From positions 4,672,001 through 4,736,000 of the forward strand of contig OZ250150.1 of assembly GCA_965237675.1 (NCBI GenBank): a DNA stretch of 64,000 nt, read 5' to 3'. This document shows positions 1,962 to 59,853 of this stretch, piece after piece. The notes under the pieces were generated by a model. The model had not been told where the DNA came from. It did not search any database and saw nothing but the letters and a program-made list of their open reading frames with translations. Positions within the stretch are counted from its first letter, which is position 1. Every line of letters starts with the position of its first letter. A program made the translations under genes and the position numbers. The stretch is from Candidatus Latescibacterota bacterium. Its GTDB lineage: Bacteria > Latescibacterota > UBA2968 > GCA-2709665.

Positions 1962-2033
1962 GTAGCGACGGCATTAGCGAACAGATACGGCAATACGGAT
2001 CAGATCTGAGGATTACCGAACGTACGGAAACAT
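1962..2033 (-). other. 72-bp attI-like double-dyad site, copy B
   Basis: 54/72 identical, ungapped, to 59782-59853 (hand count). Confidence 0.7.
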
Positions 2034-2104
2034 ATCGGTTTGACGGCGGCCTGGTACCGGAGCGTGATGAATCCACTCAAGCCCCGTCAGCTTCCATAAG
2101 ACTC

Positions 2105-3421
2105 CTAATCATTCCCGTTTTCGCTTTTCGCCAGACTGGCACAGACCAGTTCTTCATCATTTCGAGCGAACACATGTTTATAGGCAAACGCTGGATGCGC
2201 CCACGTGACGCCGCCTCGACGATTCAACTGGTCGCGCGTCGGTTCGATCAGTTTCGCGCGACTGATGACATTCAGCCCGTCCGGCGACAGCGTGGTAATC
2301 AGAAGTTCGCCGCGCTCATTGAACATCCAGACCCTATCGCCGTTCCTGATAAAATGGATGTTGCTCCAGCGGGCTTTGGGTACCGCTGTCAGGTCTTCCC
2401 AGATCCGATCGCCGTTTCGGGCATCGAGACAGCGGAGTTCCCCGTAGCTATCCACACCGTAGATGAAATCGCCAAGTCGGATCGGAGTTGACATCGTGGA
2501 ATGGAGGGCCTCTGTGTTCCGCTCGTCTTTACCCTTACGGTGCCAACCGAATTGCATTGTCGGCTTATCCGGATTCAATCTCAGCAGCAACGATCCATCA
2601 AAGAAATCAGTGAAAAACAACTCGTTCCGATAAAAAACCGGACTTGCGATCCCGATCTCCATGCGATGCGGCGGAAAAGGATGGCGCCAATACACGCCGC
2701 CCGTCTTCGGGTTGAGACCGACGATATTCTCGGCTGTCCGACAGACCAGGACGCGCGCATTGCCCTGTGTGATCACAATCGGCGCCGAGTAAGATGCCTT
2801 GTCGTCAAGGGCCTTCCACCTTTCAGCTCCGGTTTCGCGGTCGAAAGCGACGATACATGCTCCGGGCGTACCGCCGATCTGGATGATCACGTTTGATCCT
2901 TCAACGATCGGCGCGCTTGCAATTCCCCACGTTGGCATCGCAATATTGTACTCGGTGTTTAAGTCTCGCTTCCACTTCAATTCGCCCGTCGCCGCGTCAA
3001 AGCAGTGGAGATGCCCCATCGCCCCCAGGGCGTAAGCGAGGCCATTGTGAACGGTAACTGCCGCGCGGGGACCTGCAACATATTCAATTCTGTACTCGCA
3101 ATCGTACGTGTAGGACCAGATCAGTTCTCCCGTTTCCCACGCAAAACAGTGAACCCGTTCCACCTGTTTCGGTTTCGCAAGACGGTCAGTAACGTAGACG
3201 CGCCCGTCTGCGACGCTGGGGCCGCTATAGCCGCTACCGATGGGCACTCGCCAGCGGACCGGGATCTCGGGTCCGTCAAACGCTTTCAATATCCCGGTTT
3301 CACTCCAGACTCCGTCCCGTGTCGGTCCTCGCCACTGCGGCCATTCGTCGGCCAAAACCGAAGAGACGGGAATCAACACAGCCAGCAACATTGGCGTAAT
3401 TCTCAATTGGATCCGGTTCAC
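2105..3421 (-). CDS. PQQ-like/BamB-type beta-propeller protein with signal peptide
   Basis: ADEWPQWRGPTRDG N-terminus; repeated CFDAATGELKW blades. Confidence 0.88.
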   Translation of the reverse strand: MNRIQLRITPMLLAVLIPVSSVLADEWPQWRGPTRDGVWSETGILKAFDGPEIPVRWRVPIGSGYSGPSVADGRVYVTDRLAKPKQVERVHCFAWETGELIWSYTYDCEYRIEYVAGPRAAVTVHNGLAYALGAMGHLHCFDAATGELKWKRDLNTEYNIAMPTWGIASAPIVEGSNVIIQIGGTPGACIVAFDRETGAERWKALDDKASYSAPIVITQGNARVLVCRTAENIVGLNPKTGGVYWRHPFPPHRMEIGIASPVFYRNELFFTDFFDGSLLLRLNPDKPTMQFGWHRKGKDERNTEALHSTMSTPIRLGDFIYGVDSYGELRCLDARNGDRIWEDLTAVPKARWSNIHFIRNGDRVWMFNERGELLITTLSPDGLNVISRAKLIEPTRDQLNRRGGVTWAHPAFAYKHVFARNDEELVCASLAKSENGND

Positions 3422-3580
3422 GGTTTATCCTGTCCTTTCGTCCGTCACGTCCATCCGCTCAACGAAAACGATGTCCCCGGCCTTCGGGTCGGCAGGGCGC
3501 TTTACGGACCCGGATGGCCGGACGGTTTGCAAACCGGGAAAGGGGCGCCCGGGACCAGGGAGCGTAGTGATTGAAGCACA

Positions 3581-3612
3581 AGCCGGCTATCACAGGTTGT
3601 GCCGGCTTTTTT
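3581..3612 (+). terminator. Possible intrinsic terminator
   Basis: agccggc-N-gccggct hairpin followed by a T-run. Confidence 0.4.
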
Positions 3613-3825
3613 TATCGGGAAAAGAAAAAAGGGACTGGCACCGGCTGCCGAAACTCCCGTGCATATGCAGGATGCGGCTGGTAAGTCACAAACCTCCTTT
3701 TCTCTTCATCAAGGTAACAAGAAGGTGGATGTCCACCAAATCGGGTCAAATCCTATAAACACCAGACGCCGTATGGCGCAGCGTAAATGGGTGTGACAGA
3801 GGGTGTTGGAATTTTCACGAATGAT

Positions 3826-4614
3826 TCAGCCCGACAAGGGCGTTATGACGATTTCATCATTGATTTTGTCAATATCGCAGAATAACAACTCCTCCTCAGT
3901 GTATGAAGCTCTCACCAGAATCCGTCCCGAAGCATCACAAATGATCGAACTTCCCAATATGCGATCTTCAGCCATCGCACTAATCTGAGCAACATAGTTT
4001 GACTGAATCACGGGAATACCAAACGTCTGAGATATCGTCTGGGCTCCGTCGCCACATCCGTCTTTGGTAATGCGTCGCTCCGAATCTATGGTACTTGTCG
4101 ATACCGATGGCCATAAGATCACATCGCTATCCTCCAGGCCTCTACCTTTCACTCGATCAAGAAAGCCAGACTCTGCGCAGAAAACAGAGCCGAAGCGAAA
4201 TGGACCAATTCGTATGGGCGAACGATCTTGCGCTTCGACAAATGCCCACACCTTCTTCCAGCCGTCAACGAGAAAGGTTCTGGCTCCCCCTAAAACAGGT
4301 GCTTTTCCGGGCTGGAGCAGTAACAACGCGTTGAGATAGCCCTTTCCCGATGAATACGGCGTACCGATGAGGGTTCTGACATTTATCTTACAAGCAGCGT
4401 CGTTTATTTCCGATATCGCATTCTCGACGCCTTGATACCAATTGGGTTCTCTAAAAAAGCTGTGCAGGTGAAAATCATAGCCTATTAGCATCATCTCCGG
4501 AAAGACCATTAACTCGGCATTGTGCTCCGATGCTCTCTCCATCCATCTTGTAATCGTTGCGACATTCTCATCTATAGTCGCTGACATCACCGGCTGTACT
4601 GAGCAGACCTTCAT
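3826..4614 (-). CDS. Carbon-nitrogen hydrolase (nitrilase superfamily)
   Basis: MKVCSVQP start, VFPEM and FCAE motifs; the ORF-track extension runs through an attC. Confidence 0.82.
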   Translation of the reverse strand: MKVCSVQPVMSATIDENVATITRWMERASEHNAELMVFPEMMLIGYDFHLHSFFREPNWYQGVENAISEINDAACKINVRTLIGTPYSSGKGYLNALLLLQPGKAPVLGGARTFLVDGWKKVWAFVEAQDRSPIRIGPFRFGSVFCAESGFLDRVKGRGLEDSDVILWPSVSTSTIDSERRITKDGCGDGAQTISQTFGIPVIQSNYVAQISAMAEDRILGSSIICDASGRILVRASYTEEELLFCDIDKINDEIVITPLSG

Positions 4615-5017
4615 TTGTACACCGCCATGGAAGTTATCCAATGTCCTCAAACGATCTTGCAGGCACCTACCCGGCGCAGACGGCTTCTGCGAATGCACCG
4701 GAGCCGCAGCCTGTCGCGTTGGCCACCCGACGTACCCGATGCGTGCCTGCCGGAACGTCAAGCCCGCATGCTCACAGGAATCACTGTAACCTTCCGTTCT
4801 CTGCACAAGGTCACAACGTGTCCGAACCATTCAATGGGATCCAATGACCTATACAGGTTGTCCACGGCCCATGAATGTGCACACGTCACGGGGCTTCGGG
4901 TTCCAGTTTCCTGGCATGAATCCGGCTTGATCAATCCCCCGGGCCGATGACTCACCAGGCGGCGCACCGCAGCGCCGAACATCCTCGACAACCATGCGGT
5001 AATCGCAACTCAATCTG

Positions 5018-5836: not shown

Positions 5837-5980
5837 TCGGCACCTCGTGAAAATGGTGATCGCGTATGAACTTGACCGAAATCCTTAGCGGGAAATGGGT
5901 CGCAAACTGAGAGGTCCATCTCAATAGGTGAGCGATGAACGTAGTTACGAGCTATCTCTTTGACATCTTTCGTAGCCATT

Positions 5981-6352: not shown

Positions 6353-6478
6353 GAAGGTCCTCCTGAAATCTTAGTGCGCATCTTCCGGGCGGCGCGGCGC
6401 CGCATTACCTTCGAATACTTTAAGAACTTACATTAGGACTTCGACGCAAAATGCGTGCATACGTTAAGGCGCAGAAAT

Positions 6479-10658: not shown

Positions 10659-10674
10659 GCGATCTCCTTTCAAA

Positions 10675-10746
10675 TTAGCTTCGGCATTCGCGAGCAGGCA
10701 CGGTAATACGGACCGGTCAGAAAAATCCCCGAATGTTCGTGTACAC
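10675..10746 (-). other. 72-bp attI-like double-dyad site, copy C
   Basis: Colinear with 59782-59853 and 1962-2033 (ggcatt..cga.cag..acggtaatacgga..at..ccgaa.gttcg). Confidence 0.6.
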
Positions 10747-10768
10747 TTCGTGTGGGATTTAACTATCG

Positions 10769-11155
10769 TCAATCCGATTCAAATGCATGTTGGGTCAACC
10801 ACTCAACCAGACTCTCCTTTGAAACCTGGCCGGAAGCAACACCTAAAATAAGCGACTCTTGTTCATCCACACTGGCTCTGATTTCATGACCATTCAGAAT
10901 CAGAAATACCTCCATCGCTGCATGGCCCAATCTCTTATTCCCATCGACGAACGGGTGGTTTTGCACGAGGGAAAAGCATAACGCACCGGCTTTCTCGATC
11001 AACGAAGGATAGAGATCACGCCCCCCATAAGTGATACGGGGTTGCGCGACGGCCGACTCTAATCTGCCTGTATCGCGCAACCCCGATGCTCCGCCACTTT
11101 GATCGACAACGCGTCCGTAAAGTTCGATCACCTCTGCCAAAGAAAGATACCTCAT
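10769..11155 (-). CDS. doc: Doc/Fic family toxin
   Basis: HPFVDGNKR motif; LESAVAQP. Confidence 0.92.
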
Positions 11156-11349
11156 TAACTCAGCCTTCTATAGAGTTCCTCATTCTTGCGTAAAACACGC
11201 TGTGCTGCAACTTCAAAATCCTCTTGAAGCTTATCAAGCAAATCGTCCAACGCAGCTTTTGCAAGCTGCTCCGGACGTATGCCAAGGCGTTTGGCGGTTA
11301 AATCCAACTTTTCGTTTTGTGATTCTGTGAGATCCAGAAAAAGCTTCAT
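11155..11349 (-). CDS. Putative antitoxin of Doc
   Basis: 64 aa, overlaps the doc start, ends [10 protein letters not shown]. Confidence 0.8.
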
Positions 11350-16400: not shown

Positions 16401-17213
16401 CTAACCGAACTGTTCTTCCAGCCATGCGATCGCGAAGTCTGCCAGATCCCTGGCGTCGAACAGAAACGAGTCCGCGGCGCCAACCCACCCCTCCGCGCAG
16501 CGTCCGCGAGCCATATACGCTTTTGAAATGGCCCGGAAATAGCTGCCATCGGGCCAGTCAGCGATTCCATTGGAAGTATCAAACTGCTCGAACTCGATCC
16601 ATTCGCACTTGCCACCGCGCAAGACGGGCCACCGATAGCGCTCAGTTCTCTTGTTGGGCACGTCAGCAATGTGTTCCGCGTAGTGGAGAATGGTGAGGCT
16701 ATCGAAAAGCGGTCCAAGCAGGAGTATTTTCCCCCGAACTTCGCACAACTTCTCGAGGGGGGAATCCACGCCATAACCGAACTGAAGCGGATGGTCCGAT
16801 GTTATCCAATCCGCGCTCGCGCCAACTGCTGCCACTCGTGCCTCAGGATGGGCGCTGCAACGTGCCCCTGGCCATGTGCGCAGGTACTCTGTAAGGATGC
16901 TCCACTCACGAAAGGCGCGAGTCCGGGAAGGATCAAATGGTGGGCACTCTGCCAGATAGGCTTTCTGCCAGTCCTCCGGCCAATCATCAATTTCGTTCAA
17001 TGGTTCCTCGCACTTCACGTACATCATCAAGGTCCCCGTTGAACCGAGCACGTCCAGGATCGCCCGAAGCACCATTTCAGGGCCCCCTACGATCCAGCCG
17101 ACTGCCTTGACAGAAGCATGCAGCATCAAGGTGTCGCCAGCGGCAAGCCCCAGTTTCGATAAGTCTGATACCAATCTGCTTCGTGTAATCACCGGCAGAT
17201 CTGTGTTGACCAT
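16401..17213 (-). CDS. Aminoglycoside 3-N-acetyltransferase family (AAC(3)/YokD)
   Basis: MLHASVKAVG, GTLMMY, TILHYAE. Confidence 0.9.
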   Translation of the reverse strand: MVNTDLPVITRSRLVSDLSKLGLAAGDTLMLHASVKAVGWIVGGPEMVLRAILDVLGSTGTLMMYVKCEEPLNEIDDWPEDWQKAYLAECPPFDPSRTRAFREWSILTEYLRTWPGARCSAHPEARVAAVGASADWITSDHPLQFGYGVDSPLEKLCEVRGKILLLGPLFDSLTILHYAEHIADVPNKRTERYRWPVLRGGKCEWIEFEQFDTSNGIADWPDGSYFRAISKAYMARGRCAEGWVGAADSFLFDARDLADFAIAWLEEQFG

Positions 17214-17322
17214 GCTGACCGCCTCTCGCGTCAGGGAAGACCTTGCATTGCAGTCTACGGTCTGGCCGCGTGCGAACCCACCGAGCGCAGCGGAGGTGGA
17301 TTTCCGCAGGCCATGAATTATG

Positions 17323-17670
17323 TCAACTCTCACCCCAGTTCTTGACCAGGTCGCGGTCGGCGCCCCCCTGTGCCAGCACCGGTATTTCCGACCGGGTCCG
17401 CACCGGGATATTTGGATCGGCTCCCGATTGCAACAAAAACCGCACGACGTCAACCCGGTCGCCGCGTGCTGCTTCCCACAGAAACGTCCGGTTGTGCCCG
17501 CCGCTCTTGGCCAGCAGCAGCGACGGTTCCCGCTTCAGATGCCGTTTTACAGCGTACAAATCTTCGCGTCGTGCATCCTTTCAAATCCTGTCGATACCGA
17601 AGCGGCCGCTGTGGCCTGAACGCGGCTTGACTTCATCTCCCCATTCGTGGTCGTCCGGAGCCGTACCCAT
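17323..17670 (-). pseudogene. Ankyrin-repeat gene remnant
   Basis: RTFLWEAARGDRVDVVRFLLQSGADPNI; upstream in-frame stop. Confidence 0.55.
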
Positions 17671-22035: not shown

Positions 22036-22848
22036 CTAACCGAAGTGTTCTTCCAGCCATGCGACCGCAAAATCGGCCAGATCCGTCGCGTCGAACAGAT
22101 ACGAATCTGCGGCTCCAACCCGCCCCTCCGAGAAGCGTCCACGAGCCATATATGCTTTCGAGATGCACTGGAAATAGCTGCCATCGGGCCAGTCGGCGAT
22201 TCCTCCTGAAGTATCAAACTGCTCGAACGCTATCCATTCGCACTTGCCGTCGCGCAAGACCGGCCATCGATAGCGCTCAGTTCTCTTGTTGGGCACGTCA
22301 GCGATATGCTCTGCGTAGTGAAGAATGGTCAGGCTGTCGAACAGCGGTCCGAGCAGAAGTACTTTCCCCCCAACGTCGCACAGCTTCTCGAGGGGGGAAT
22401 CTACGCCGTAACCAAACTGAAGCGGATGATCTGACGTTAGCCATTCCGCCCTCGCGCCAACTGCCGCCACTCTTGCCTCGGGATGGTTGCTGCAATGCAC
22501 CCCGGGCCATGTGCGAAGGTACTCTGTAAGGATACTCCACCGACGATTGGCGCGAGTCCGGTACGGGTCAAACGGCGGGCACTCTGCCAGATAGGCTTTC
22601 TGCCAGTCCTCCGGCCAATCATCGATTTCGTTCAACGGTTCCTCACACTTAATGTACATCATCAAAGTCCCAGTTGAACCGAGCACGTCAAGGATCGACC
22701 GTAGCACCACGTTAGGCCCCCCGACGATCCAGCCGACCGCCTTGACGGAGGCATGCAGCATCACCGTGTCGCCAGAGGCAAGCCCCAGTTTCGACAAGTC
22801 GGATACCAAGCTGCTTCGTGTGATCACCGGCAGATTTGTGTTGGCCAC
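22036..22848 (-). CDS. AAC(3)/YokD family acetyltransferase, second copy
   Basis: About 33 aa differences out of 270 from 16401-17213 (hand count). Confidence 0.9.
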   Translation of the reverse strand: MANTNLPVITRSSLVSDLSKLGLASGDTVMLHASVKAVGWIVGGPNVVLRSILDVLGSTGTLMMYIKCEEPLNEIDDWPEDWQKAYLAECPPFDPYRTRANRRWSILTEYLRTWPGVHCSNHPEARVAAVGARAEWLTSDHPLQFGYGVDSPLEKLCDVGGKVLLLGPLFDSLTILHYAEHIADVPNKRTERYRWPVLRDGKCEWIAFEQFDTSGGIADWPDGSYFQCISKAYMARGRFSEGRVGAADSYLFDATDLADFAVAWLEEHFG

Positions 22849-22886
22849 GCTGTATGCCACCCTAGTCAGGGAAGAATATGCATTGC

Positions 22887-26298: not shown

Positions 26299-27077
26299 GG
26301 TTGAATCCTAGAATTTAAGTGGGATCTGCGGTGCATTTAGCCTGAATAATTCACAAAAAAGGTAGTTTCCATACCCAAGTCATTGTATTATATTATGGTT
26401 ACGCAAATAACCTAATAACAATGAAACAGGAGGAAACTACCGTGGGAGTTCAAGATAAACATCACAGGTTGTCTTTCGCAAGTCTTTCTGGTAGGCAGGT
26501 AGAAGCCACGTTCGACGGGGGCGTGCTGACGACCGACGTCGGGGTGATGCTGCTTCGTGAGGTCGAGGCCAATGTCGGCATTTTGCATCGGATGGTTGCG
26601 GCGCTCACCGATCATCGACATCAAAGTTACGTACATCATTCGATGATGGACCTGATCAAACAACGTGTCTTTCAGATGGCCTGTGGGTATGAGGATGCGA
26701 ATGATTGCAAGACGTTACGCGAGGACCCCGGCTTCAAGGCGGCCTGTGATCGGTTGCCGTTGTCTGGCGCGGACCTGGCCAGTCAGCCCACGATGAGTCG
26801 GTTCGAGAACCGCATCAGCAGAACCGATTTGTATCGGATCGCCAAGGCCTTTGCGGATGTGTTTGTCGCCTCGTATGAGGAACCGCCGGAAGCCATTCTG
26901 TTGGACATCGATGACACCGAAGACAAGGTGCATGGGTCTCAACAGTTGTCGTTGTTCAATGCGTATTTCAATGGCTATTGCTACCAGCCCCTGCATATCT
27001 ATGAAGGCCAAACCGGCAAGTTGATCACGACGGTCTTGCGTCCTGGCAGGCGGCCTGCGGGTAAAGAGATCGTCACC

Positions 27078-32924: not shown

Positions 32925-33896
32925 CTATTCGAGAAGCTTCACAACTGTTCTTCGGTCCCAGCCGCCTGGCGCCGGACCCTGGTATGCGGCGAGGATGTCC
33001 AACACCCTTGCCAGGGAGTGGAGTTTTAGAACCAACTCTTGCTCCACACTCAACATTCCATAAGCCCGCCAGAAACATTCAGATATTTCTGGTGTCGTGA
33101 GGAATACGCTAAGATAAAGATCCCTGGAGTCGGTAAATGCCGGAGCAATTTTGGCTTTTCCGAAATCGAGAACCGCCACCAGATTCAAGGTTTCCGGATC
33201 TACACGAAGATTATGCAACTGAAAGTCATGATGGACAAGGGCATCAACTTCCGCGGCTCCGAGAGAATCGGCCAGGTCGGTCCAGAGCGCAACGCAGCGA
33301 TCGAGGGTGTCATTCCCCAGCCAGCCTTGCTTCCGGAGAAGCCCGATAGCCCGTTCGAATCTGTTCTCCTCCGACTTCCGCCACTCGTTTCCGCTCATCG
33401 GGTCGCCGAGAATGGCGGCGGTATACGGCCCCAGAGGAATGGAGTGAAGGGCACGCAAATGACTCGCGCATTGAATAAGAATCTTCTCCTTGTCTTCGAC
33501 GTCTATCTCGCTCCAAACCCGGTCCCCATCGACGCCAGCCACGTACTCAATCAGAGCATGAGGATACGGGACAATGGCGTCACCCGATGAGACGTAGACC
33601 CAGGGTGGCGTCGGCACCGTAGATTCACGTTGGACCCATCTGACAACCCCTTCTTCCCTTCGCATCACGTCGTCGTCCGAGCATCTGACCCAAATCTTCA
33701 AAATCAGCAAGTCACGACCGGGCAACTCCAGCAAGAAGATGGCGTTCACTTCACCTCGCCTCAGCCGACGGATCGAGGTCGGTTTTGGGAGACCGGCTTT
33801 TGAACAAATCGCCTGCGCGATTGGGAGCGAAACATCATAGTTGACGAATTCCTGGTAGGTCAGGAGTGGCTTAGGGGCAGTCATCGGGTTCTTCAT
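32925..33896 (-). CDS. APH/choline-kinase-like phosphotransferase
   Basis: HHDFQLHN; VLDFG. Confidence 0.85.
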   Translation of the reverse strand: MKNPMTAPKPLLTYQEFVNYDVSLPIAQAICSKAGLPKPTSIRRLRRGEVNAIFLLELPGRDLLILKIWVRCSDDDVMRREEGVVRWVQRESTVPTPPWVYVSSGDAIVPYPHALIEYVAGVDGDRVWSEIDVEDKEKILIQCASHLRALHSIPLGPYTAAILGDPMSGNEWRKSEENRFERAIGLLRKQGWLGNDTLDRCVALWTDLADSLGAAEVDALVHHDFQLHNLRVDPETLNLVAVLDFGKAKIAPAFTDSRDLYLSVFLTTPEISECFWRAYGMLSVEQELVLKLHSLARVLDILAAYQGPAPGGWDRRTVVKLLE

Positions 33897-39819: not shown

Positions 39820-41633
39820 GAGTCCACTCCGAAAAGTCGAGTTTACTTATTGAGGAAAAAGTACTAAATTTCAAGGTGAGAAGAGGTTTCAAAGTTGCGG
39901 ACGTATAAAGGAAAAAGCGAGGGTATAGAATCAATGTATAAGAGAAGCGCGTCATGCAGCCAACCGGATCTGTTTTCGGGCTTCGAGTCGCATTTCAAGA
40001 GGCGCAAGCAGGACCAGTTGAATGATCCGAAGTCGTGGCATAATCTGTTTTACCAGCACGTCACGTCAAAGATAGAAGAGGATGTGTTTTCGGTGTTGTT
40101 TGATCCCAACCAAGGCCGCCCCAATGCGCCGATTCGTCACCTGGTGTCGATGATGATCTTGAAGGAGGGCTTTGGGTGGAGCGATGCCCAACTATTCGAG
40201 CATTGTCGGTTCAACATCCTGGTGATGCGGGCATTGGGGTTGATGAATCTATGCGATGAAGTGCCTGCGGAGTCCACGTATTATTTGTTCAAGCAGGCCT
40301 TGTATGCGGATCAACTCGAAGCCGGTCGAGATCTGATTGGAGAGACCTTTTCCAGCTTGACACAGACGCAGGCCAACGCCTTTGGTGTATTAGGTCAGCA
40401 CATCCGAATGGACAGTAAGTTGATCGGCTCTAACATTGCCCTGTGTTGTCGGTTGCAGTTGGTGGTGCGTTGCTTACAAGGGTTCTGGGGGTCGCTGGAC
40501 AAGGCCCAAAAGCGACGATCATCGGCAAAAAATCAGCAGGTTTTGGACGGATTGCTGAAGGTGAAGGCGCATCAGGTTGTCTATGGTCTCACCCGCGCTG
40601 AAAAGTGTGAGAAGCTGCAGGAATGCGGGCAGTTATTGAGCAGGCTTCAAGCGACCTATACCGACGAAGACAGCGGTCACTACGGTCTGATCGTGCGTGT
40701 TATGGGGGATCAATATACCGTTTTATCGTCCTCCAAACAGGTGCTTCCGAAGCCTCCTAAAGAGATCTCCTCATCCTCCTTGCAGTCTGCCGATGATGAA
40801 GATGCGACCTTTCGCAGGAAAGGGAAGGACAAGGTGAAAGGATACAGTGTCAACCTCACCGAGACCTGTGGTGAGGACGGCCTCAATTTGATCACGGACG
40901 TTGACGTCAAACCGGCGACGACGCCCGACAATGCGTTTGTACAAGCGGCCATCGAGCGGACGCAACAGGTCGTGGGTGACGCCTTGGAAGTGTCAATGGA
41001 TGGGGCCTATAATGATCAATCCAACGCCGAGTATGCAAAAGAACAGGACAAGCAATTCTATTACAGTGGCCTGCAAGGAACCCCAGGACGTTTCATTTAT
41101 GAACGCACAGAAGATGGCGTCACCGTCATCGATCAACAAACCGGAGAGGTTCACATAGCCCAAGAATACAAACCGGGAAAATACAAAATCATCATGGATG
41201 GCAAACCCCGATACTTTAAAGAACAGCACATCGACAATTACCTCAAACGCAAACAGATTGAAGCCCTGCCTGACCACATCAGAAACCGACGCAATAACGT
41301 CGAAGCCAGCATCTTTCAGTTGAGCTACTACACCAAAGATGGCAAGACGCGCTATCGCGGACTGAGGCCACACCAATTGTGGGCGCACTGTCGCGGCTTA
41401 TGGGTCAACCTCGTTCGGATCAAGAACTACCTCGCAACACCTCCGATGCTCCCCGCATAAGGGGGGGTTTCTTGCAAAAACCTCCATACCATAGGCCCTG
41501 AGCAACTTCGTAGGTTGCCCCTGAGTTGATTTGCCGCACCTACACGTTATATCGTCGCCACACGCTAAATCACAATACCCAACCCTGACCACTTACATCA
41601 GGCCTTTATAACCCCCGTTTTCGGAGGGGACTC
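39820..41633 (+). mobile_element. DDE insertion sequence (IS5/IS1182-like)
   Basis: TIR GAGTCCACTCCGAAAA / TTTTCGGAGGGGACTC. Confidence 0.85.
39934..41460 (+). CDS. DDE transposase with InsH-N/DUF772-like N-terminus
   Basis: GRPNAP..LKE..GWSD; RMDSK; DGAY; RNNVEA. Confidence 0.85.
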   Translation: MYKRSASCSQPDLFSGFESHFKRRKQDQLNDPKSWHNLFYQHVTSKIEEDVFSVLFDPNQGRPNAPIRHLVSMMILKEGFGWSDAQLFEHCRFNILVMRALGLMNLCDEVPAESTYYLFKQALYADQLEAGRDLIGETFSSLTQTQANAFGVLGQHIRMDSKLIGSNIALCCRLQLVVRCLQGFWGSLDKAQKRRSSAKNQQVLDGLLKVKAHQVVYGLTRAEKCEKLQECGQLLSRLQATYTDEDSGHYGLIVRVMGDQYTVLSSSKQVLPKPPKEISSSSLQSADDEDATFRRKGKDKVKGYSVNLTETCGEDGLNLITDVDVKPATTPDNAFVQAAIERTQQVVGDALEVSMDGAYNDQSNAEYAKEQDKQFYYSGLQGTPGRFIYERTEDGVTVIDQQTGEVHIAQEYKPGKYKIIMDGKPRYFKEQHIDNYLKRKQIEALPDHIRNRRNNVEASIFQLSYYTKDGKTRYRGLRPHQLWAHCRGLWVNLVRIKNYLATPPMLPA

Positions 41634-42712: not shown

Positions 42713-43690
42713 TCAATCTATGCCTTCGATTGCAGCTTCGCCCATACGAATCGCCGCATGCGGGAGGGCGAGTATTCGGTCTTCCAGTTCCCAGATCTTC
42801 CGATTATGCGACTTTGGACCCCATTTCCGGTGGAGCTGACAAAGGCGCCTGGCATAGAAGGCAGCGAAGATGAGCGGGAGTGCGGTTCGTTCATCATCTG
42901 AGGGAGGCCGGACTGAGAAGTACCCCTCCACGAACCGCTGCATTTCCTCATCTGTAAGCTGTCGACCCACGGTCCCAATCAGCCATTGCATCCGGACCAT
43001 CACCACATCCACAAGCGCCGGAGCGAAGTGGGCAGAATTGAAGTCGGTGAACCTGACTTCACCTGAAGGGGAAGCAATCGTGTTCCTGCTTCGCACATCT
43101 CCGCGACAGAAGAGCCAACGAACGTTCATCTTGTTCGGCGTGTTATCCAGCTGTGCTCGAAGCCGGGTGACCGCATCTGCCGCGTTCGACGAGAACGTCG
43201 TCCTCTCGCAATACTCGAGAGCATCAGAGATGTACAGCCGCGCATCTTTGACTTCTGAACTGTAGACTGGAAAGTCTTCGCTCGCATCGTGAACCCGTGC
43301 GAGAGCCTCCCCCACGTTGCGGAGCGTATCGACGCGGTCTACAACCTCTCCTTCCAGGACGCTCTCGACCGAAATCACCAGGTCTCGAACGGATTTGCAG
43401 GGGCTGCCATCCGTGGTTGGAAGGATGTCAGGACACGGCGCGCCGCGATCAGAAAGGTGTCGAACGAACTCCACAATGGTTTTGGGGTGGGTCGAACCGT
43501 CCCATCCCGGATTTACGCGGAACACAACGCGTCCGTCCCGCAGACTGTCACAAAAGAAGACGCACCGTGAATTCGCCCTGCGGACTTTTGTTACTTTCAG
43601 ACCCCAGAATCGCTTGCAGAGTTCCGTGATCTCTCGCTGATCAGGCAGCGGGCCCGTTTCGTCTCTGGATCTGGGATAGAGGGCTTCCAT
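42713..43690 (-). CDS. Phosphotransferase (homoserine kinase type II/APH-like)
   Basis: LARVH; RGDVRSRN; TDF. Confidence 0.8.
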   Translation of the reverse strand: MEALYPRSRDETGPLPDQREITELCKRFWGLKVTKVRRANSRCVFFCDSLRDGRVVFRVNPGWDGSTHPKTIVEFVRHLSDRGAPCPDILPTTDGSPCKSVRDLVISVESVLEGEVVDRVDTLRNVGEALARVHDASEDFPVYSSEVKDARLYISDALEYCERTTFSSNAADAVTRLRAQLDNTPNKMNVRWLFCRGDVRSRNTIASPSGEVRFTDFNSAHFAPALVDVVMVRMQWLIGTVGRQLTDEEMQRFVEGYFSVRPPSDDERTALPLIFAAFYARRLCQLHRKWGPKSHNRKIWELEDRILALPHAAIRMGEAAIEGID

Positions 43691-43779: not shown

Positions 43780-44358
43780 TCAGATTTCCCAGTTCGACAC
43801 GTATGATCGGCTCTTGAGTCGCTCAGCAAGCTCAATCAATACAGATAGTGACTTGTTTAACCGGGCCGTAGTTGCGTCGTCGAGTTCGCCTCCCTCACCC
43901 CAATTATCGCCGTGGGCATACACATTATACGGGCTGACAATGCACTTGAAATCCAGCATAAGGGACGTTGCCAGCGACGCAAACGCCATATAGCTGTGCG
44001 GCAAGGCGCCCGAATTGACAAACATCACGATCTTGTCATAGAAAGCTCCTCTGAGCGATCCGCCTGGTGGCGTTGAACCTATGTACTCGACGAATTTCTT
44101 GAGCTCTGCGCAACACGCCCAGTTGTATACCGGACTGGCCAATATCACCGCATCGGATGCCGCAATGATCCTGTGGCACGATTGGTAAACCACGGATGAA
44201 TAGATTTCGTCGTCGTCGAAATTCGGCGGATCAAGTCGTCGAAGATCGATGAAGTCAACAGAAATGCCTCTGTCCTCCAGGGCGGTCCGACACATGGCGG
44301 CAAGATCCCTGCTGTGACTGTCCGCATTGAGGCTGCTGCTGACGACTGAAAATCTCAT
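43780..44358 (-). CDS. NADPH-dependent FMN reductase
   Basis: SSSLNADSHS; ASPVYNW..LKKF. Confidence 0.85.
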   Translation of the reverse strand: MRFSVVSSSLNADSHSRDLAAMCRTALEDRGISVDFIDLRRLDPPNFDDDEIYSSVVYQSCHRIIAASDAVILASPVYNWACCAELKKFVEYIGSTPPGGSLRGAFYDKIVMFVNSGALPHSYMAFASLATSLMLDFKCIVSPYNVYAHGDNWGEGGELDDATTARLNKSLSVLIELAERLKSRSYVSNWEI

Positions 44359-50793: not shown

Positions 50794-50886
50794 TTATAGC
50801 GCAATCGCCATCTCCTCCGTCGCTTTCAGCAGCGCGTTGCCGATCACCTCGAACTGGATCGGATTGACTTCGGTCTTCGCATGCAA
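50794..50886 (-). pseudogene. Hydantoinase B/oxoprolinase N-terminal stub
   Basis: AAGGAG RBS, TTG start, MHAKTEVNPIQFEVIGNALLKATEEMAIAL*. Confidence 0.65.
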
Positions 50887-51831
50887 CTACGGAATCTCCT
50901 TTAAGAAATGCCCTATCAGGCCGGTGTTCCGTGCCAGAAATCGTTGTACGCCGCCAGCGGCCCGTCCCCGTGCGGCCCGGTAGCCAGATCCAGCCCCCCG
51001 AAGAGATAGACGGACTCGCCCCCCACTGTCATAACGGGGATTCGCCTGACACCGGGACGTTCGGCGCCAGCAGAGTAATCCTCCGCACCGTTGTGTGGAT
51101 ATAGACAGTCCCACCGGCCGGCACGAAGATCGTACTGCCACAGATCGTTCAGCTGGGGGTGCTCCCCTTCCCCTCCTGCAAATCCTCCGAACAGATACAG
51201 GTGATCTCCGATCACAGCGTATCCCAGCCCGTACCGAGGGGAAGGCCGTGCAACATCATCCGACCGGTTCTCCTGAATGCAGGTCCAGGCGCCTCCGTCG
51301 GGATCGTATTCCCACAGATCGTTGTAGAACTCCGGCGCTCGACCCTGACTGTCCCGACCGCCCCACAGGTAGAGCCTGCCGTTCCAGCCGGCCAGCACGG
51401 GACAGTATCGTTTCGGCGGCCAACCGTTGCGTCCATTCGATGCAGGCCCCAGGTGCTCCCATTTCCCGGCCGGCGCCTTGTAGGTCCACAGCTGTGCGTG
51501 CGTCATCGCGCCATGGCCCCCCATCAGATACAGGTAATCACCCAGAACGGCCGCCCCCATCCCGCCCGAACCGGCGGGACGATGCCCATCCGCCGTTATT
51601 CCTGATGCGCGCCCGTCGTCGGGCTCTAACAGCTCCCACGAGGCTGTCTTCGGATCGTAGGCCCAGAGATCGTTCAGCTTGATCTCCCTCTTGCCGGGGC
51701 CCCGCACTGAGGACCCGCCAAAAAGATAAAGCCTGCCGTTCACGGGCAGCCAGGTCGTGAGCTTCCGGGTACACGGTCTGGTATCGGACGGTCTGAACCC
51801 GATGCGCCCATCGTGGTCTTCCAACCGCGTC
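50842..51831. repeat. Direct repeat, apparently identical to 63011-64000
   Basis: Constant offset of 12169 bp; identical ORF translations. Confidence 0.92.
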
Positions 51832-52043
51832 CACCGGCCTCGACCCGGGTCGTAGCGCCACAGGTCGTTCAATGAGCCCTGGACGGAAAGATCTCCAGGC
51901 CCTTTCGGCCGGCCGTACATCACTTTTATCCCCCCGAACAGGTAGACGCATCCATTGTAGCTCAACATCCCGCCGAAGGCCGCCCGCCTACAGGGTACAT
52001 CCTCGGCTTGCTCCTGGTCTGGATGCAGCAGTTCCCACTTCAT
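50916..52043 (-). CDS. Kelch-repeat beta-propeller protein
   Basis: Repeated LYLFGG...NDLW.YD...W. Confidence 0.9.
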   Translation of the reverse strand: MKWELLHPDQEQAEDVPCRRAAFGGMLSYNGCVYLFGGIKVMYGRPKGPGDLSVQGSLNDLWRYDPGRGRWTRLEDHDGRIGFRPSDTRPCTRKLTTWLPVNGRLYLFGGSSVRGPGKREIKLNDLWAYDPKTASWELLEPDDGRASGITADGHRPAGSGGMGAAVLGDYLYLMGGHGAMTHAQLWTYKAPAGKWEHLGPASNGRNGWPPKRYCPVLAGWNGRLYLWGGRDSQGRAPEFYNDLWEYDPDGGAWTCIQENRSDDVARPSPRYGLGYAVIGDHLYLFGGFAGGEGEHPQLNDLWQYDLRAGRWDCLYPHNGAEDYSAGAERPGVRRIPVMTVGGESVYLFGGLDLATGPHGDGPLAAYNDFWHGTPA

Positions 52044-52220
52044 AGTGGACCTCCGCACGGCCTGACTTGTGATTCTGCGGAGAAAGTTCGGCATATTCCA
52101 TTCGTAGCCGAAAAACTTGATACAGTTTATTCGCCGTGGAAGACTTCAAAATAAGGTGGTTGTTGCCTTTTGTGCGCGATTTTTTGGGGTAATGTGGCTG
52201 GGAACACTTGCGCCGCTTTC

Positions 52221-52321
52221 GGTTAACGGTTCTTGGCTTTACGACGTGGGCCAGTCCCAAAGGCCCATGTGCCCGCAGGGCCGAGGGGCGGATGCCCCGA
52301 AGCGTAAAGCCGGTGTTAGCC
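52221..52321 (-). other. attC-like site (intact)
   Basis: GGTTAAC..ggctttacg...cgtaaagcc..GTTAGCC. Confidence 0.87.
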
Positions 52322-53321: not shown

Positions 53322-53432
53322 TATATCCTCTTGTGTTGCTGTAAGAATTGCGTCGCAATTGGACTGTAAAAGTGCGGACAGGCTGTCTCGTGCTGTCTAA
53401 CTACGTATGGAAATCAATGCTCTATTAATTGC

Positions 53433-53516
53433 GGCTAACGTTTTCGCCGTGCCCGAACCGCGAAGCGGTTGCGCGAAGGGCCGTATGGCCCGTAGCCGGG
53501 CACGGACGTGTTATGT
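53433..53516 (-). other. attC-like site (intact)
   Basis: GGCTAAC..ccgtgcccg...cgggcacgg..GTTATGT. Confidence 0.88.
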
Positions 53517-55189: not shown

Positions 55190-55341
55190 AGATAACGTTC
55201 CCGGGCTATACGACGTTCCCCGGTCCGGCGAAGCCGGATTGGCGCGGCGCTTGCGTCTCTCAGCAAGCGACGTGACAAAGGGGAATGTGCCCGAAGGGCC
55301 GGAGGGAGCGAAGCGACCGGAGCGAATAGCCCGTGTTAGCA
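55190..55341 (-). other. attC-like site (long, intact)
   Basis: AGATAAC..cgggctat...atagcccg.GTTAGCA. Confidence 0.85.
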
Positions 55342-55939: not shown

Positions 55940-57627
55940 CCCGATTAATTCATGAATCGTCAGATAGAGCATTTTAAGGAAGCAGAAAGAGCTTCCGAGT
56001 GAGACAAGAAACGAAAGCGCATGGGCTGTGACGGATTTGGCGTGTTCAAGCCGTTTGGGCGGCGCCTGCTTTGCCTCGTGACGTCAGGTTGACCTCGATG
56101 CCCGTGTCAAGCGCACAGACTTCTCCATGACCTTTGGTGGTGGTCGATGCAAATGTGAAGGCGGGGTCAGCACGTCGATGGGTTATGGAACACCCGTTGC
56201 CAGATTATAGAGGATCTTGCCATAAAGGTGTTTGAGTGGAAACGCCGTTGGCAGATGGAACTTGATTTTAGTTTTCAACTCACAAACGCGCCCGGCGACT
56301 TTCAAGAGACGATTTTGCAGGGTATTGAACTGTGCGTTGGTCCACTTCGTGCCGCGCAATCCGATTGCAGCCAGGCTGTGCATCAGGACATAGGCGGCGC
56401 TGTGGAGAAAGAGACGGAAGTGATTGGCCTGGAAGGTGTGACAAGAGGTGCGATCGGAATGGAGAAAGGTCTTGTGATTTTTGATGAAGTTTTCCATCCT
56501 GCCGCGTGTGCAATAGGCGGTTTTGTAGATGAATGACGGTTGGGCGCGCTTCAGGTTGGTGACCACGAATCGGATATTGACACCTTGCGGTGTCACTTCC
56601 GCCTTGCAGACGATGCGTTGTGGACACGCCCAGGTGCCGGCCTGATAGGCCCAACAGCGATAAAGGCGCACGGTTTCTCCGGAATCGGCATACCGCGTTT
56701 TGGCCTGGTCTATCAAGGACTGTGCCTTCCGCAGGAGTTTGGCGTTGCCGTTCTGTCCGAGGACAAAATACACATCTTCTTCCTCACACAACACGTGCAC
56801 TTCCGGACACGAAAAATGCGCATCGCCACGTAACAGGATCTCCACGTCGGGCCAGGCTTTACGCAGGTAGGCGATCACCCGTTTGAGGATGGTGACGATC
56901 TCTTTACCCGCAGGCCGCCTGCCAGGACGCAAGACCGTCGTGATCAACTTGCCGGTTTGGCCTTCATAGATATGCAGGGGCTGGTAGCAATAGCCATTGA
57001 AATACGCATTGAACAACGACAACTGTTGAGACCCATGCACCTTGTCTTCGGTGTCATCGATGTCCAACAGAATGGCTTCCGGCGGTTCCTCATACGAGGC
57101 GACAAACACATCCGCAAAGGCCTTGGCGATCCGATACAAATCGGTTCTGCTGATGCGGTTCTCGAACCGACTCATCGTGGGCTGACTGGCCAGGTCCGCG
57201 CCAGACAACGGCAACCGATCACAGGCCGCCTTGAAGCCGGGGTCCTCGCGTAACGTCTTGCAATCATTCGCATCCTCATACCCACAGGCCATCTGAAAGA
57301 CACGTTGTTTGATCAGGTCCATCATCGAATGATGTACGTAACTTTGATGTCGATGATCGGTGAGCGCCGCAACCATCCGATGCAAAATGCCGACATTGGC
57401 CTCGACCTCACGAAGCAGCATCACCCCGACGTCGGTCGTCAGCACGCCCCCGTCGAACGTGGCTTCTACCTGCCTACCAGAAAGACTTGCGAAAGACAAC
57501 CTGTGATGTTTATCTTGAACTCCCACGGTAGTTTCCTCCTGTTTCATTGTTATTAGGTTATTTGCGTAACCATAATATAATACAATGACTTGGGTATGGA
57601 AACTACCTTTTTTGTGAATTATTCAGG
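55940..57627 (-). mobile_element. IS1380-family element, intact copy 2 (1688 bp)
   Basis: TIRs as copy 1; 4-bp TSD TTAG. Confidence 0.93.
56183..57547 (-). CDS. IS1380 family transposase
   Basis: FDGG..T.D.G, GYEDANDC, LASQPTMSR, LDID, LRGD, RG.MENFIK. Confidence 0.93.
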   Translation of the reverse strand: MKQEETTVGVQDKHHRLSFASLSGRQVEATFDGGVLTTDVGVMLLREVEANVGILHRMVAALTDHRHQSYVHHSMMDLIKQRVFQMACGYEDANDCKTLREDPGFKAACDRLPLSGADLASQPTMSRFENRISRTDLYRIAKAFADVFVASYEEPPEAILLDIDDTEDKVHGSQQLSLFNAYFNGYCYQPLHIYEGQTGKLITTVLRPGRRPAGKEIVTILKRVIAYLRKAWPDVEILLRGDAHFSCPEVHVLCEEEDVYFVLGQNGNAKLLRKAQSLIDQAKTRYADSGETVRLYRCWAYQAGTWACPQRIVCKAEVTPQGVNIRFVVTNLKRAQPSFIYKTAYCTRGRMENFIKNHKTFLHSDRTSCHTFQANHFRLFLHSAAYVLMHSLAAIGLRGTKWTNAQFNTLQNRLLKVAGRVCELKTKIKFHLPTAFPLKHLYGKILYNLATGVP

Positions 57628-58074
57628 TTAGGTCTTCGAAATAAGAAATAGATAGAAGCACCAAGGACATTGGAGCCAAGAATTGTAATGCCCCAACCCA
57701 ACTTCTGCCCAGGCTACCACTGACATTGACGGGCGCCCAATGCCAGCAACAGCATGATGCGCTCGCAGGGGCAGATCAGAGACCCGAGGAAACGCGAGAA
57801 GACAGGACCAGGATGGCAACAAATGGTCAAGTCTCCCTTACGTGTCATATCTCTCTGAACGATACGTAAGGGGTCTCCTGATGTCAATGTGCCAGGGAGG
57901 AAACGCCGGCCGGGGATCAGGGCCTGTGGCGTCCGTTGCCAAGGGGTCGCGGCGGATCGGGCCTTCCGGCGCATTGGGTGAATCACGTTGTGATTAGCCG
58001 GTTCCTGGGGACGTCGATTCCCCGAGTCGGCGAAGCGACGAATCCCGCAGATAAGTCCCGCAACGGGCGCATGC

Positions 58075-59451
58075 CTACCTGCTGAACGCGTCGGGCCTGC
58101 TGGAGTCCGAGGGCCAGTACCCGTCGCGGCTCGGGTGCCAGCGCTTGCCGCACAGGTCGGAGATCACGCTCCATTCGGGGGCGCTCAGATCAGGGTCCGG
58201 CTGGAACAGGAAGCGCTGCAGGCCGGCCCGCTCGGAGGCGGTCAGGATGCCGTGCAGGTCGCGGGCGGTCATGGGCTCGCCCCCGTGCGGACGGCGCCCC
58301 GTCGACACCCAGGCGATCACCTTGTTCACATCCCCGATGGCCTCCAGCGCTCGGCGCGTCTCGTTGTACACCAGCTCCGAGTAGAACTCCTCGGGGAACC
58401 CCAGTTCCATGTCCGCCAGGGTCTGCACCCCGGGAAGCTCCAGCCCCAGGAAGGCCTTGACCACGGCGAAGCCGTCTGCCTCCAACAGGGTCGGGTTCCA
58501 GTCCAGGACCTGCTGCACCCAGCGGGCCATGGTGCCGTAGAGGCCGTCATTCCCGCGGTGCCAGAAGTAGTGCTTGGGGAAGACGTAGTCGAAGTACTCC
58601 GCCATCTCGCCAAATTCGTGCCCGGTCAGTGACGAGAAAGCGGCGGTGCGCGGAATGCCCCCCAGCTCCACCTTCCCTCCCACTCTCTGCATCTGCGCGT
58701 GCACGGCGCGCATGAACCCCCGCGCCGCTTCGCGGCGGGCGCGCAGCCAGTACAGGGCATCCTCGTTCAGGTCGAACAGGTTCAGTGCCCCCAGCATGCC
58801 GCCGGACGCGTGGTAGCGCACCAGATCCGGAGTCAGGTTGTGGAAACGCTCGTTCAGGTGCGCCATGCCGCGGGCGACGCGCTCCACATCGGCGCCGATG
58901 GCTTCCAGGCGGTGCCGCATGCGACCGTCCAGTTCCAGTAGGGCCTTACCCCGATGGAAGGCAAGTTCGTAGAAGGTCTCACCGGGCTGGTCCAGGATGA
59001 CGCCGTGGGCCTGGGGATAGGCACTGGCCAGGTCGTGCACCCCGGCGGCCACCTCGATGGCCCCGAAAGGGTCCTCCTCCTCGGCTAGGCCGCTGGTGGT
59101 ACCCTGGCCCCGCTGGTAGAGCAGCCGGAGCCCGTCTCTGGAGTCGAAGATCATGATGTGCCAGCCCCGGGAGGCGGCGTTGTCGAGGAGCGCGTGGAGC
59201 TGCTTCTCCCTCTCGGGGGTGCGGGCCGTTTCCGGGGGCGGCTTGATGCCGAACGCGGCGTACACCTTTGGGTCCGCCGCAAACGAGGGGGTGAGGGTGT
59301 CCCCCCACAACGGCATGCCGGCCTCGTTCCTGAGCCACATCCGTCCCACCACGATGCCGCCCACCCCTCCCGCCTCCCACGCGTCGAAGATGCGCGGGTA
59401 GTCGTCCAGCCAGTGCTCCAGGGGATTGTGCACGAAGATCCAGGGTACCAT
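58075..59451 (-). CDS. Hypothetical GC-rich protein (458 aa)
   Basis: Long ORF with GAGG RBS; PKHYFWHRG.DG.YGT motif. Confidence 0.75.
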   Translation of the reverse strand: MVPWIFVHNPLEHWLDDYPRIFDAWEAGGVGGIVVGRMWLRNEAGMPLWGDTLTPSFAADPKVYAAFGIKPPPETARTPEREKQLHALLDNAASRGWHIMIFDSRDGLRLLYQRGQGTTSGLAEEEDPFGAIEVAAGVHDLASAYPQAHGVILDQPGETFYELAFHRGKALLELDGRMRHRLEAIGADVERVARGMAHLNERFHNLTPDLVRYHASGGMLGALNLFDLNEDALYWLRARREAARGFMRAVHAQMQRVGGKVELGGIPRTAAFSSLTGHEFGEMAEYFDYVFPKHYFWHRGNDGLYGTMARWVQQVLDWNPTLLEADGFAVVKAFLGLELPGVQTLADMELGFPEEFYSELVYNETRRALEAIGDVNKVIAWVSTGRRPHGGEPMTARDLHGILTASERAGLQRFLFQPDPDLSAPEWSVISDLCGKRWHPSRDGYWPSDSSRPDAFSR

Positions 59452-59471
59452 CGCGTCACCTCTCTCTGGGG

Positions 59472-59588
59472 TTACCCCAGTTTAGTGGACGGTTCCTTAA
59501 CTGCACATTCAATGAGCATCCACAGCCAGAAACCTATCATGCCCAAGAGGAGGACAAGCAGGATTTCCCAAAGACCTATGCCGAACAT
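59472..59588 (-). pseudogene. Truncated small membrane protein (PLDc-N-like)
   Basis: MFGIGLWEILLVLLLGMIGFWLWMLIECAVKEPSTKLG*, GGAGG RBS. Confidence 0.55.
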
Positions 59589-59781
59589 TCTCGCCTCCCT
59601 TGTTTTCGGTCAATCGAATGGTTGATAATTATCTCGAGCTTTGGATTTAGGGAAGATCTGACTCGGGATTTCTCCGCTGTCGCATAAATCCAAGTATAGG
59701 AACGAGTGTTGATGGTGGGGAGGGTGGGGCTATTTTTGCACGCAATCACGGTTCTTCTGGGGGTGGTGGGGGCGATTTCTG

Positions 59782-59853
59782 CTAACTACGGTATTACCGA
59801 ACAGTTACGGTAATGCGTACCTGATCCGAAGATCTGCGAACGTTCGGGAACAT
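59782..59853 (-). other. 72-bp attI-like double-dyad site, copy A, 60 bp downstream of the recombinase stop
   Basis: gtattaccg-N8-cggtaatgc and cgaacgttcg dyads; ends GTTAG on the - strand. Confidence 0.7.

Follow-up and report, generated by a model that had tools for sequence, protein, structure and literature searches.

Probable attI-type recombination sites and their truncated solo copies in a large cassette array of a Latescibacterota chromosome

What is a short sequence that recurs between the genes of a long cassette array, always in the orientation of the cassettes? This question is raised by a window of 64,000 nucleotides (nt) from a Candidatus Latescibacterota bacterium (assembly GCA_965237675.1, contig OZ250150.1, positions 4,672,001 to 4,736,000; window coordinates count from the first letter of this stretch). 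An earlier note on this DNA had singled out three colinear 72-bp stretches, A, B and C, as primary insertion sites with accessory recombinase-binding repeats, left by several platforms fused into one array or by repeated integrase loss. That observation is correct and understated, and the family is larger than first described. Because the element is linked to a recombinase gene, because homology between its copies stops at the G of a terminal box, because it shares cassettes with attC sites, because inserts occur at its box in metagenomes and because it has no conserved fold, the 72-bp stretches are quite probably the core of an attI-type site, that is, of the primary site of an integron-like platform in this chromosome.

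A (59782–59853), B (1962–2033) and C (10675–10746) aligned without gaps. The 54 of 72 identities counted by hand for A and B were found exactly, and the pairs A-C and B-C gave 48/72 and 47/72. When A was compared with all other 72-mers of the window, the mean was 17.9 ungapped identities (standard deviation 3.7), and the next-best 72-mer scored 35 (plus strand) or 36 (reverse strand). Read along the cassette (minus) strand, A ends in GTTAGC, B in GCTAC and C in GCTAA. Both reported dyads are present as sequence, one as a 10-bp palindrome and the other as a 7+7 inverted repeat with an 8-nt spacer. B lies 71 nt past a PQQ-repeat gene and C 22 nt past doc, as described. A had been placed after the stop of a recombinase gene; the position stands, 129 nt past that stop, but the frame ending there is only a frameshifted C-terminal remnant. 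The features concerned are as follows.

59781–59914, minus strand: element A, a complete attI-like site, starting immediately past the recombinase stop and ending with the R box GTTAGC (59781–59786)
about 59874–59891, about 59835–59853 (palindrome 59837–59846) and about 59788–59816, minus strand: repeats of A, with GAAC..GTTC-type cores
59915–60449, minus strand: recombinase remnant, with about 86 C-terminal codons readable and the rest frameshifted; stop at 59915–59917
60482–61111, minus strand: HIT-family gene, directly upstream of the recombinase remnant
58075–59451, minus strand: open reading frame of 458 residues without a Pfam family, first cassette behind A
1952–2043, minus strand: element B, a solo site truncated from the second repeat on, R box GCTAC (1962–1966), at the junction of the PQQ-repeat cassette and the DUF6176 cassette
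2105–3421, minus strand: PQQ/BamB-like beta-propeller gene, cassette with B as its apparent 3' site
1595–1933, minus strand: DUF6176 gene, cassette downstream of B
10666–10757, minus strand: element C, a solo truncated site, R box GCTAA (10675–10679), at the junction of the phd/doc cassette and the glyoxalase cassette
10769–11349, minus strand: Fic/Doc toxin gene (10769–11155) with a small upstream open reading frame (11155–11349), cassette with C as its apparent 3' site
53424–53515, minus strand: top-scoring ordinary attC of the array, found by the attC model

Nearly all genes of the window are on the minus strand. A Pfam search revealed a long run of small, unrelated, co-oriented genes, broken by a few insertion sequences. 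Among the products are GNAT and aminoglycoside acetyltransferases, glyoxalases, methyltransferases and NUDIX, HAD and HIT enzymes; phd/doc, HigBA, HicB and PIN modules occur in the same run. The intergenic regions contain imperfect palindromes, which start near ...TAAC and end in ACGTTA.... An alignment of 14 such attC sites folded with −10.25 kcal/mol and 14 consensus pairs, 8/14 with compensatory changes. Covariance models made from attC sites matched the minus strand exclusively (45 of 45 matches, later 53 of 53, in 168 kb of genome searched), and 31 matches fell in the window, from 666 to 61981. These models replaced an iterated nhmmer search from one attC, which had caught a single sequence subclass of 24 sites. 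A hairpin finder of our own, in which the minimum-energy fold had to pair a terminal AAC with GTT, was dropped (14 sites, mostly spurious), as was a loose regular expression for attC 3' halves, which gave no useful enrichment.

Since folded, co-oriented attC sites lie between cassette-type genes, the window is the interior of a large attC cassette array. An oriented array of folded attC sites with cassettes was thus found, by our own covariance model rather than that of IntegronFinder. Within the span scanned for attC sites (4,605,001–4,625,000 and 4,652,001–4,770,000), the outermost sites detected were a further copy of the element, F, at 4,760,228 and an attC at 4,608,787, so that at least 151 kb lie between them. 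A second, smaller array is present in the genome at 1.405–1.423 Mb.

A BLAST search of the genome with A gave six further copies. A profile of nine copies then produced 11 matches with E ≤ 6e-10 and two weak ones (4.8e-4 and 0.16). All 13 copies were on the plus strand and within two attC-array regions, at 4.61–4.76 Mb and 1.41–1.42 Mb; the remaining 10 profile matches listed had E ≥ 0.44 and were scattered. With a sequence-only model of 17 copies, the family was detected in 23 of 31 related genomes, among them 13 of the 14 of the same genus, with 1 to 13 copies per genome, clustered and on one strand per cluster. Genome-wide, the copies are therefore grouped in attC arrays and in cassette orientation instead of being scattered. 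Together with the recombinase linkage and the variable downstream gene described below, this supports the proposal that A, B and C are primary insertion sites.

The conserved unit of complete copies exceeds 72 bp and extends toward the recombinase stop, the full site being about 130 bp long. Read in cassette orientation, a complete site consists of the stop codon, three repeats and a terminal box G/TTA. The core of each repeat is GAAC and GTTC separated by 0 to 2 nt (2, 0 and 1 nt in the three pairs), with TTCC or TTAC in front. The starts of successive GTTCG cores are spaced by 38 and 39 nt, and the third core is followed 16 nt on by the terminal GTTA box. These repeats, of the attI kind and conserved, are candidate recombinase-binding sites. 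Copies B, C, H, I and K, as well as several of the relatives' copies, start at or just before the second repeat, and copy J is without the stretch between repeats 1 and 2. In the attC sites of the array, GTTCG stands 12–14 nt ahead of their own GTTA box; this motif is common to both, and the right end of the element thus resembles a double-stranded version of the attC 3' half. Past the GTTA box, about 25–60 nt are semi-conserved among some copies from different genomes (window 59730–59780; G, L021, L022, L085, L088, L116), the genes that follow being different. This stretch may represent a cassette leader common to these copies, or else what was originally the right flank of the site.

The element adjoins a recombinase gene. 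In this genome, this was found at A, D, F and G, the recombinase family having three places, of which D is flanked by an open frame of 346 codons and F and A by remnants. The remnant on the A side contains a C-terminal tyrosine recombinase frame with the ...HxLRHxxAT...LLGH...Y motif region, broken further up; it is 92% identical to the D copy over 396 nt of DNA and matches TIGR02249 at model positions 233–315, with one TAG inside. No attC was detected by the covariance model between the HIT-family gene and this remnant. Among loci of related genomes fetched by means of the recombinase protein, all 10 element matches lay 3' of the tyrosine recombinase stop, 50–140 nt past the end of the gene, in line with the linkage that the earlier note had predicted.

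Furthermore, 54 copies from relatives were fetched by means of the element itself, and each was compared with the D copy by BLAST. In 26 of them the similarity reached the recombinase reading frame, in 23 of these by at least 37 nt; 14 began between the stop and repeat 1, six at repeat 2 and six further in, and two gave no BLAST match to the D copy, these classes being BLAST limits against a single reference, in which divergence can mimic truncation, particularly in the second family. The gene order peptidoglycan-binding gene, recombinase or its remnant, element and cassettes recurs in several species. The same chromosomal gene, of 248 residues with a peptidoglycan-binding domain, stands at the array head, and the recombinase behind it is cut to different lengths. 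The array head has been conserved while the recombinase gene decayed repeatedly. Both this decay and the nesting of the left ends fit the suggestion of repeated integrase loss.

These left ends also bear on another explanation, according to which a small integrative element carries the recombinase gene, has the present element as its right-hand attachment end and inserts into the GTT boxes of attC arrays built by a canonical integrase since lost, the copies being insertion scars. Many copies exist and most have decayed recombinase remnants, but their left ends are nested rather than shared, a second conserved end was not seen, and in several species the recombinase and element occupy one conserved place, behind the peptidoglycan-binding gene at the array head. 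We consider this explanation unlikely; the attI-type reading is preferred, and the two are compared further below for metagenomes and for the recombinase.

The crossover point was located by comparing the 3-kb flanks of all copies against each other. Similarity between copies stops at the terminal box, wherever it starts, and A is homologous to D, F, G and 10 related loci no further than the R box. The cassettes beyond are shared with attC sites: the one behind D is also found behind the attC at 1,412,214 (95.9% over 712 nt), the one behind F behind the attC at 4,748,542 (98.7% over 700 nt), and, in relatives, the cassettes behind the elements L083, L090, L095 and L106 have counterparts behind attCs of this genome. 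In every alignment of a cassette shared by an element and an attC, the start is no more than 5 nt from the TT. By comparison of loci, the element has an R box of the form GTTRRRY, a crossover at G/TT and exchange with attC, B and C reading GCTA.

The gene after G/TT was found to vary between strains, as had been expected of an insertion site. B and L090 have 1,288 nt in common up to the box and nothing beyond; this counterpart of B has the box GTTAGC and another cassette behind. E is shared with L087, L089 and L093 up to the box and differs beyond, and in one relative the downstream side of E is shared while the upstream side is different from the first repeat on. C is conserved with both flanks in three genomes; its junction is kept in two relatives (L110, L113) with GTTAA as the box. 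B and C carry two independent T-to-C changes at the first T past the exchange point, the relatives L090, L110 and L113 reading GTTA, and these changes might fix the two junctions.

Similarly, A was found with other sequence at its box in metagenomes. Most of the sequencing runs that contain the window stretch carry the label sponge metagenome. From four independent metagenomes, contigs were compared with the window over 58500–61200; as assembled contigs, they inform on presence, not on frequency. In the X2 contig, 1,064 nt separate the remnant and element from the first cassette, and the matching pieces overlap on 59783–59786, the GTTA box. In the X4 contig, 59729 and 59783 are separated by 1,079 letters. 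In the X3 and X5 contigs the match begins at 59782 or 59783 and the sequences then differ; X5 also has a contig colinear with the window. The insertion of new cassettes at the box of the element speaks against insertion scars of an integrative element and agrees with an attI-type site. In addition, a 206-nt contig of X3 joins 59798 to 60833 inside the HIT gene and keeps the last 12 nt before the G. This joint could be a deletion or an assembly chimera, and no conclusion is based on it; its position is reminiscent of the ΔattI sites of class 1 and 2 integrons, which are truncated at −11.

The position of B and C raises a further possibility, that the element is a second sequence class of attC, which recombines as folded single-stranded DNA. 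B and C are exactly at attC positions, and the element contains inverted repeats and ends in the same GTTA box. Against this, the consensus fold of 17 element copies had −0.05 kcal/mol and three pairs, unlike the attC sites of the array. The 7-bp dyad is kept as sequence, 87% of its cells being paired, with one pair broken in 9 of 17 copies; no covariation was found in it, 219 of 500 shuffles reaching the paired fraction and 166 of 500 the covariation score. The imperfect hairpin of attC, in which R''-L'' pairs with L'-R', is not formed by the element, which shows no R''/R' pairing along its length, and, consistent with the unlikeness already reported, the attC covariance model gave no match on A, B or C at E ≤ 1. 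The position of the element past the recombinase stop is also fixed. A second class of attC is therefore very unlikely. The lack of a conserved fold agrees with a putative double-stranded recombination at an attI-type site.

The element might also be mainly a transcription control region, a cassette promoter, operator or terminator, where cassette boundaries fall by coincidence. A promoter near attI is required where the integrase of an integron is co-directional, and the palindromes could bind a dimeric regulator. Yet no promoter- or terminator-like site was found in a scan of 59400–60000, the spacers of the three GAAC/GTTC pairs are unequal, and the exact, recurrent break of homology at G/TT would be left unexplained, which makes such a region scarcely probable as the main function. 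A control role would not exclude an attI role. LexA-type boxes as an identity of the GAAC/GTTC palindromes were set aside for their differing spacers. A known RNA family is not indicated either: no Rfam family matched at gathering thresholds in the window, no fold is conserved, and the tRNA scan of the window gave no gene.

Returning to the attI-type site, its intact form would be that of locus L022, with the recombinase gene, about 130 bp with three spaced repeats, the G/TTA box and then cassettes each ending in a folded attC, all on one strand. Cassettes would enter and leave by strand exchange between G and TT, which is also the exchange point in the R' box of attC. A would be a platform whose recombinase gene has decayed, and B and C solo sites of which the second and third repeats and the box are left. 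Both begin with the second repeat, B 71 nt and C 22 nt past a gene, with no attC match between, and may act, or have acted, as the 3' recombination site of the upstream cassette, like ΔattI-type cassettes. The internal copies may have arisen by duplication and truncation of one platform, although a fusion of several platforms would be an alternative: sites would have multiplied and then been stripped of the recombinase gene, some of them now being cassette 3' sites.

Which enzyme would act on these sites? The D protein matches PF13495 and PF00589 and scored 219 bits on the NCBIfam XerA/integron-integrase model (cut-off 220). On TIGR02249 it reached 214–215 bits (cut-off 265) in two stretches, with model positions 175–234 skipped; at the recombinase-family places of this genome, no match reached the cut-off of the integron-integrase model. 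Its best relative of solved structure by sequence is the Vibrio integron integrase IntI4 (VchIntIA, PDB 2A3V; E 1.7e-43, two stretches), in which 69 residues stand opposite 27 of the recombinase, an insert of about 40 residues being absent. An intact recombinase of 376 residues is encoded in another Latescibacterota metagenome-assembled genome (MAG), at L022. Its predicted structure (mean predicted local distance difference test score, pLDDT, 81.8) was closest to 2A3V, then to XerA, and Foldseek gave E 5e-16 and 34% identity against 2A3V. With respect to L022, the D copy is without about 105 N-terminal residues; the nearest relative has a frameshifted copy.

A tree of 35 proteins placed the family (24 rows) as sister to nine canonical IntIs and the two Xer proteins of this genome outside; support for the joint clade of family and IntI was 100/99. 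The sampling is thin (IntIs from one clade, no XerA or phage integrases), and the sister position is consistent with the PDB ranking. By sequence, the linked recombinase appears nearest to the integron integrases, and this insert-less enzyme would be the one that carries out the attI × attC reaction.

The first 95 residues or so of the intact form make up a separate beta-beta-alpha-beta-beta-alpha domain without a Pfam family, which is found in many members and is missing from some homologues. In all three proteins tested it gave sub-threshold scores for Pfam HARP (12.7–15.2 bits, cut-off 25). A structure search, in which every match was below the level that the tool treats as meaningful, ranked CASTOR2 first (Z 5.6), followed by the N-terminus of T4 UvsW (Z 5.3 and 4.7), that of XPB (3.7–3.8) and the HARP domain of SMARCAL1 (3.6). 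The UvsW N-terminus has been described as a HARP domain, and HARP as junction-specific, in the text of PMC4666394. With all scores below noise level, a HARP-like nature of the domain serves as a lead only.

The recombinase family has clearly mobile members as well, which is a point for the integrative element. One related genome, G017, contains a unit of the IS91 type beside IntI, repeated in that genome, and elsewhere three identical copies of a recombinase locus occur in one genome. G017 is of the same family and has a canonical IntI. But a canonical integron integrase passed the cut-off in this one genome of the 31 related ones, staying below it in the other 30, and none reached it in the five genomes that hold distant homologues with arrays. 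The G017 locus (L120, G017:C1:2492000-2500000, positions 1505–4961) comprises a canonical integron integrase of 338 residues, a short recombinase of 284 residues and an open reading frame of 399 residues, a putative IS91-type transposase named from the zinc-finger motif in its translation. The short recombinase had matches of identical score at two further places of the genome, one again beside an integron-integrase match. In the tree, the IS91-associated member was on a long branch within the family.

Several observations weigh against an attI-type site served by this recombinase. The insert near patch III that is specific to IntI is absent, both in the alignment with IntI4 and in that with TIGR02249; in the passages of Cury et al. 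(2016) that deal with this feature, an insert of about 35 residues distinguishes IntI, and recombinases without it beside attC sites "are not IntI". This genome has no intact recombinase, D being shortened and A and F C-terminal remnants. As all copies are defective, present-day activity would need an enzyme acting in trans. At the crossover of B and C, GCTA stands in place of GTTA in this genome. About 60 nt past the box are semi-conserved in A, G, L021 and L022. The scan of 59400–60000 gave no sigma-70-like promoter, and the left-end classes carry the ambiguity between divergence and truncation noted above. Finally, no signature of site specificity was seen at the junction upstream of D.

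Homologues beyond the phylum were also considered. The recombinase family has thousands of members, annotated as XerD or "site-specific tyrosine recombinase/integron integrase". Distant loci, at 49–57% identity, came from Peptococcaceae, Desulfosporosinus, other Bacillota, Atribacterota and unclassified MAGs. In 10 of 17 of them, inspected by eye, lineage-specific repeats and a GTTA or GTTG box lie about 80–170 nt past the stop, and attC-type hairpin sites are found downstream between small genes. The attC model of our genome detected 23 sites in 11 of 27 distant loci, all downstream and on the recombinase strand; the equally long upstream flanks gave no match to this model. The three identical paralogous copies (L039, L040, L042), from one unclassified MAG, are identical up to GATGTT and then diverge. 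Each follows a RhuM-family gene, and the restriction-modification genes beyond the GTT box, which are not typical cassettes, differ from copy to copy (type I/IIG-like; two type III methylases).

It is possible, with doubt slightly outweighing belief, that a sister lineage of the integron integrases, devoid of the I2 or "additional" domain that attC recombination is held to require, and often carrying an N-terminal HARP-like (junction-binding) domain in its place, runs its own integron-type arrays, in which attI is co-directional, and does so in Latescibacterota, Bacillota and Atribacterota as well as in further phyla. A keyword search of open-access text returned no integron-type arrays headed by an insert-less recombinase and nothing on integrons in Latescibacterota genomes.

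The closest known counterpart of the complete element is attI1, for which the description in PMC12901181 gives L and R boxes, upstream direct repeats DR1 and DR2, four integrase-binding regions and a crossover after the G of GTTRRRY. Like attI1, the element adjoins a recombinase gene, has a GTTA-box end that exchanges with attC, possesses upstream repeats and lacks a conserved hairpin. Unlike attI1, which lies between divergent genes, it stands 3' of a co-directional recombinase gene, measures about 130 bp with three spaced repeats, whose sequences are unrelated to those of attI1, and occurs in many copies per genome. The solo copies may be compared with the ΔattI-type cassettes of class 1 and 2 integrons, in which a truncated attI replaces attC as the 3' site and which were recombination-proficient in the published cases covered by PMC12901181, which cites Partridge et al. 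(2000, 2009). The layout of B and C and the turnover at the box of B's counterpart are alike. In contrast to the roughly 11 bp kept in ΔattI cassettes, B and C keep at least 70 bp, in a sedentary chromosomal array of an uncultured phylum with a different recombinase.

Co-directional integrases are known from an "inverted integron-integrase group", for instance in certain Treponema, as reported in PMC4889954. Gene order and orientation are the same here. The integrases of that group probably carry the IntI-specific insert, whereas the present recombinase is without it. Its likeness to canonical IntI (VchIntIA, 2A3V) lies in the best sequence and fold match and the sister position in the small tree, the difference in the missing insert and in the extra N-terminal domain of about 95 residues in many members. 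IS91-family elements that carry a tyrosine recombinase share the same broad recombinase clade, as in G017, but there a putative IS91-type transposase follows the recombinase, not a GTTA-ended site with cassettes.

Under the rule that Cury et al. (2016) give for IntegronFinder, an integrase is a protein that matches both PF00589 and intI_Cterm. By this published rule, the arrays described here would probably be filed as attC clusters without an integron integrase (CALIN), unlike which they are headed by a specific recombinase gene and a specific primary site. Integron biology has been built on one integrase family, defined by an insert that reads folded attC DNA and demanded by the detection tools. 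Here, an insert-less recombinase is tied, in two Latescibacterota families, to a primary site whose exchange of cassettes with attC was read from sequence comparison, and its homologues head attC arrays in phyla where integrons have been called nearly absent. For Firmicutes, the survey of Néron et al. describes integrons as extremely rare. If the sister-lineage proposal is true, many CALIN arrays and part of the scarcity of Gram-positive integrons would represent a second integron type excluded by detection rules.

In the account given in PMC7790495, single-strand recombination is tied to the gain of the I2 helix. The recombinase, if confirmed as the enzyme, would thus offer a natural test of attC recognition without this helix; many "orphan" cassette arrays would be reclassified, and cassette-based gene capture would have a wider reach. 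The finding also documents a very large array, whose numerous fossil primary sites record repeated decay of platforms and in which B and C would be the chromosomal counterpart of ΔattI cassettes known so far from clinical integrons.

A few other features of the window were recorded. A DDE_Tnp_1_4 transposase gene (26421–27122 and 28523–29218) is split by a Mutator-family transposase gene at 27176–28465; an intact DDE_Tnp_1_4 copy of 454 residues is found at 56183–57547 and a DUF772 transposase at 39895–41460. An identical repeat of 300 nt (50835–51134 and 63004–63303) in the Kelch-repeat genes 50916–52094 and 63085–63993 marks a duplicated cassette. The attC at 52212–52320 has the same score as that at L015:15734-15842. 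Two cassettes of the aminoglycoside 3-N-acetyltransferase family, 86% alike over a 300-nt stretch, and two of APH-family kinases are present in this array of an environmental symbiont, as the following group of features.

16401–17453, 22036–22860, 32925–33896 and 42713–43690 of the window: acetyltransferase/APH-family cassettes

Finally, a 69-nt segment at 60399–60467, in the gap between the HIT gene and the recombinase remnant, is 96% identical to 43890–43958, inside an FMN-reductase gene. Metagenome contigs match this segment (60399–60467) alone and have unlike sequence to either side of it.

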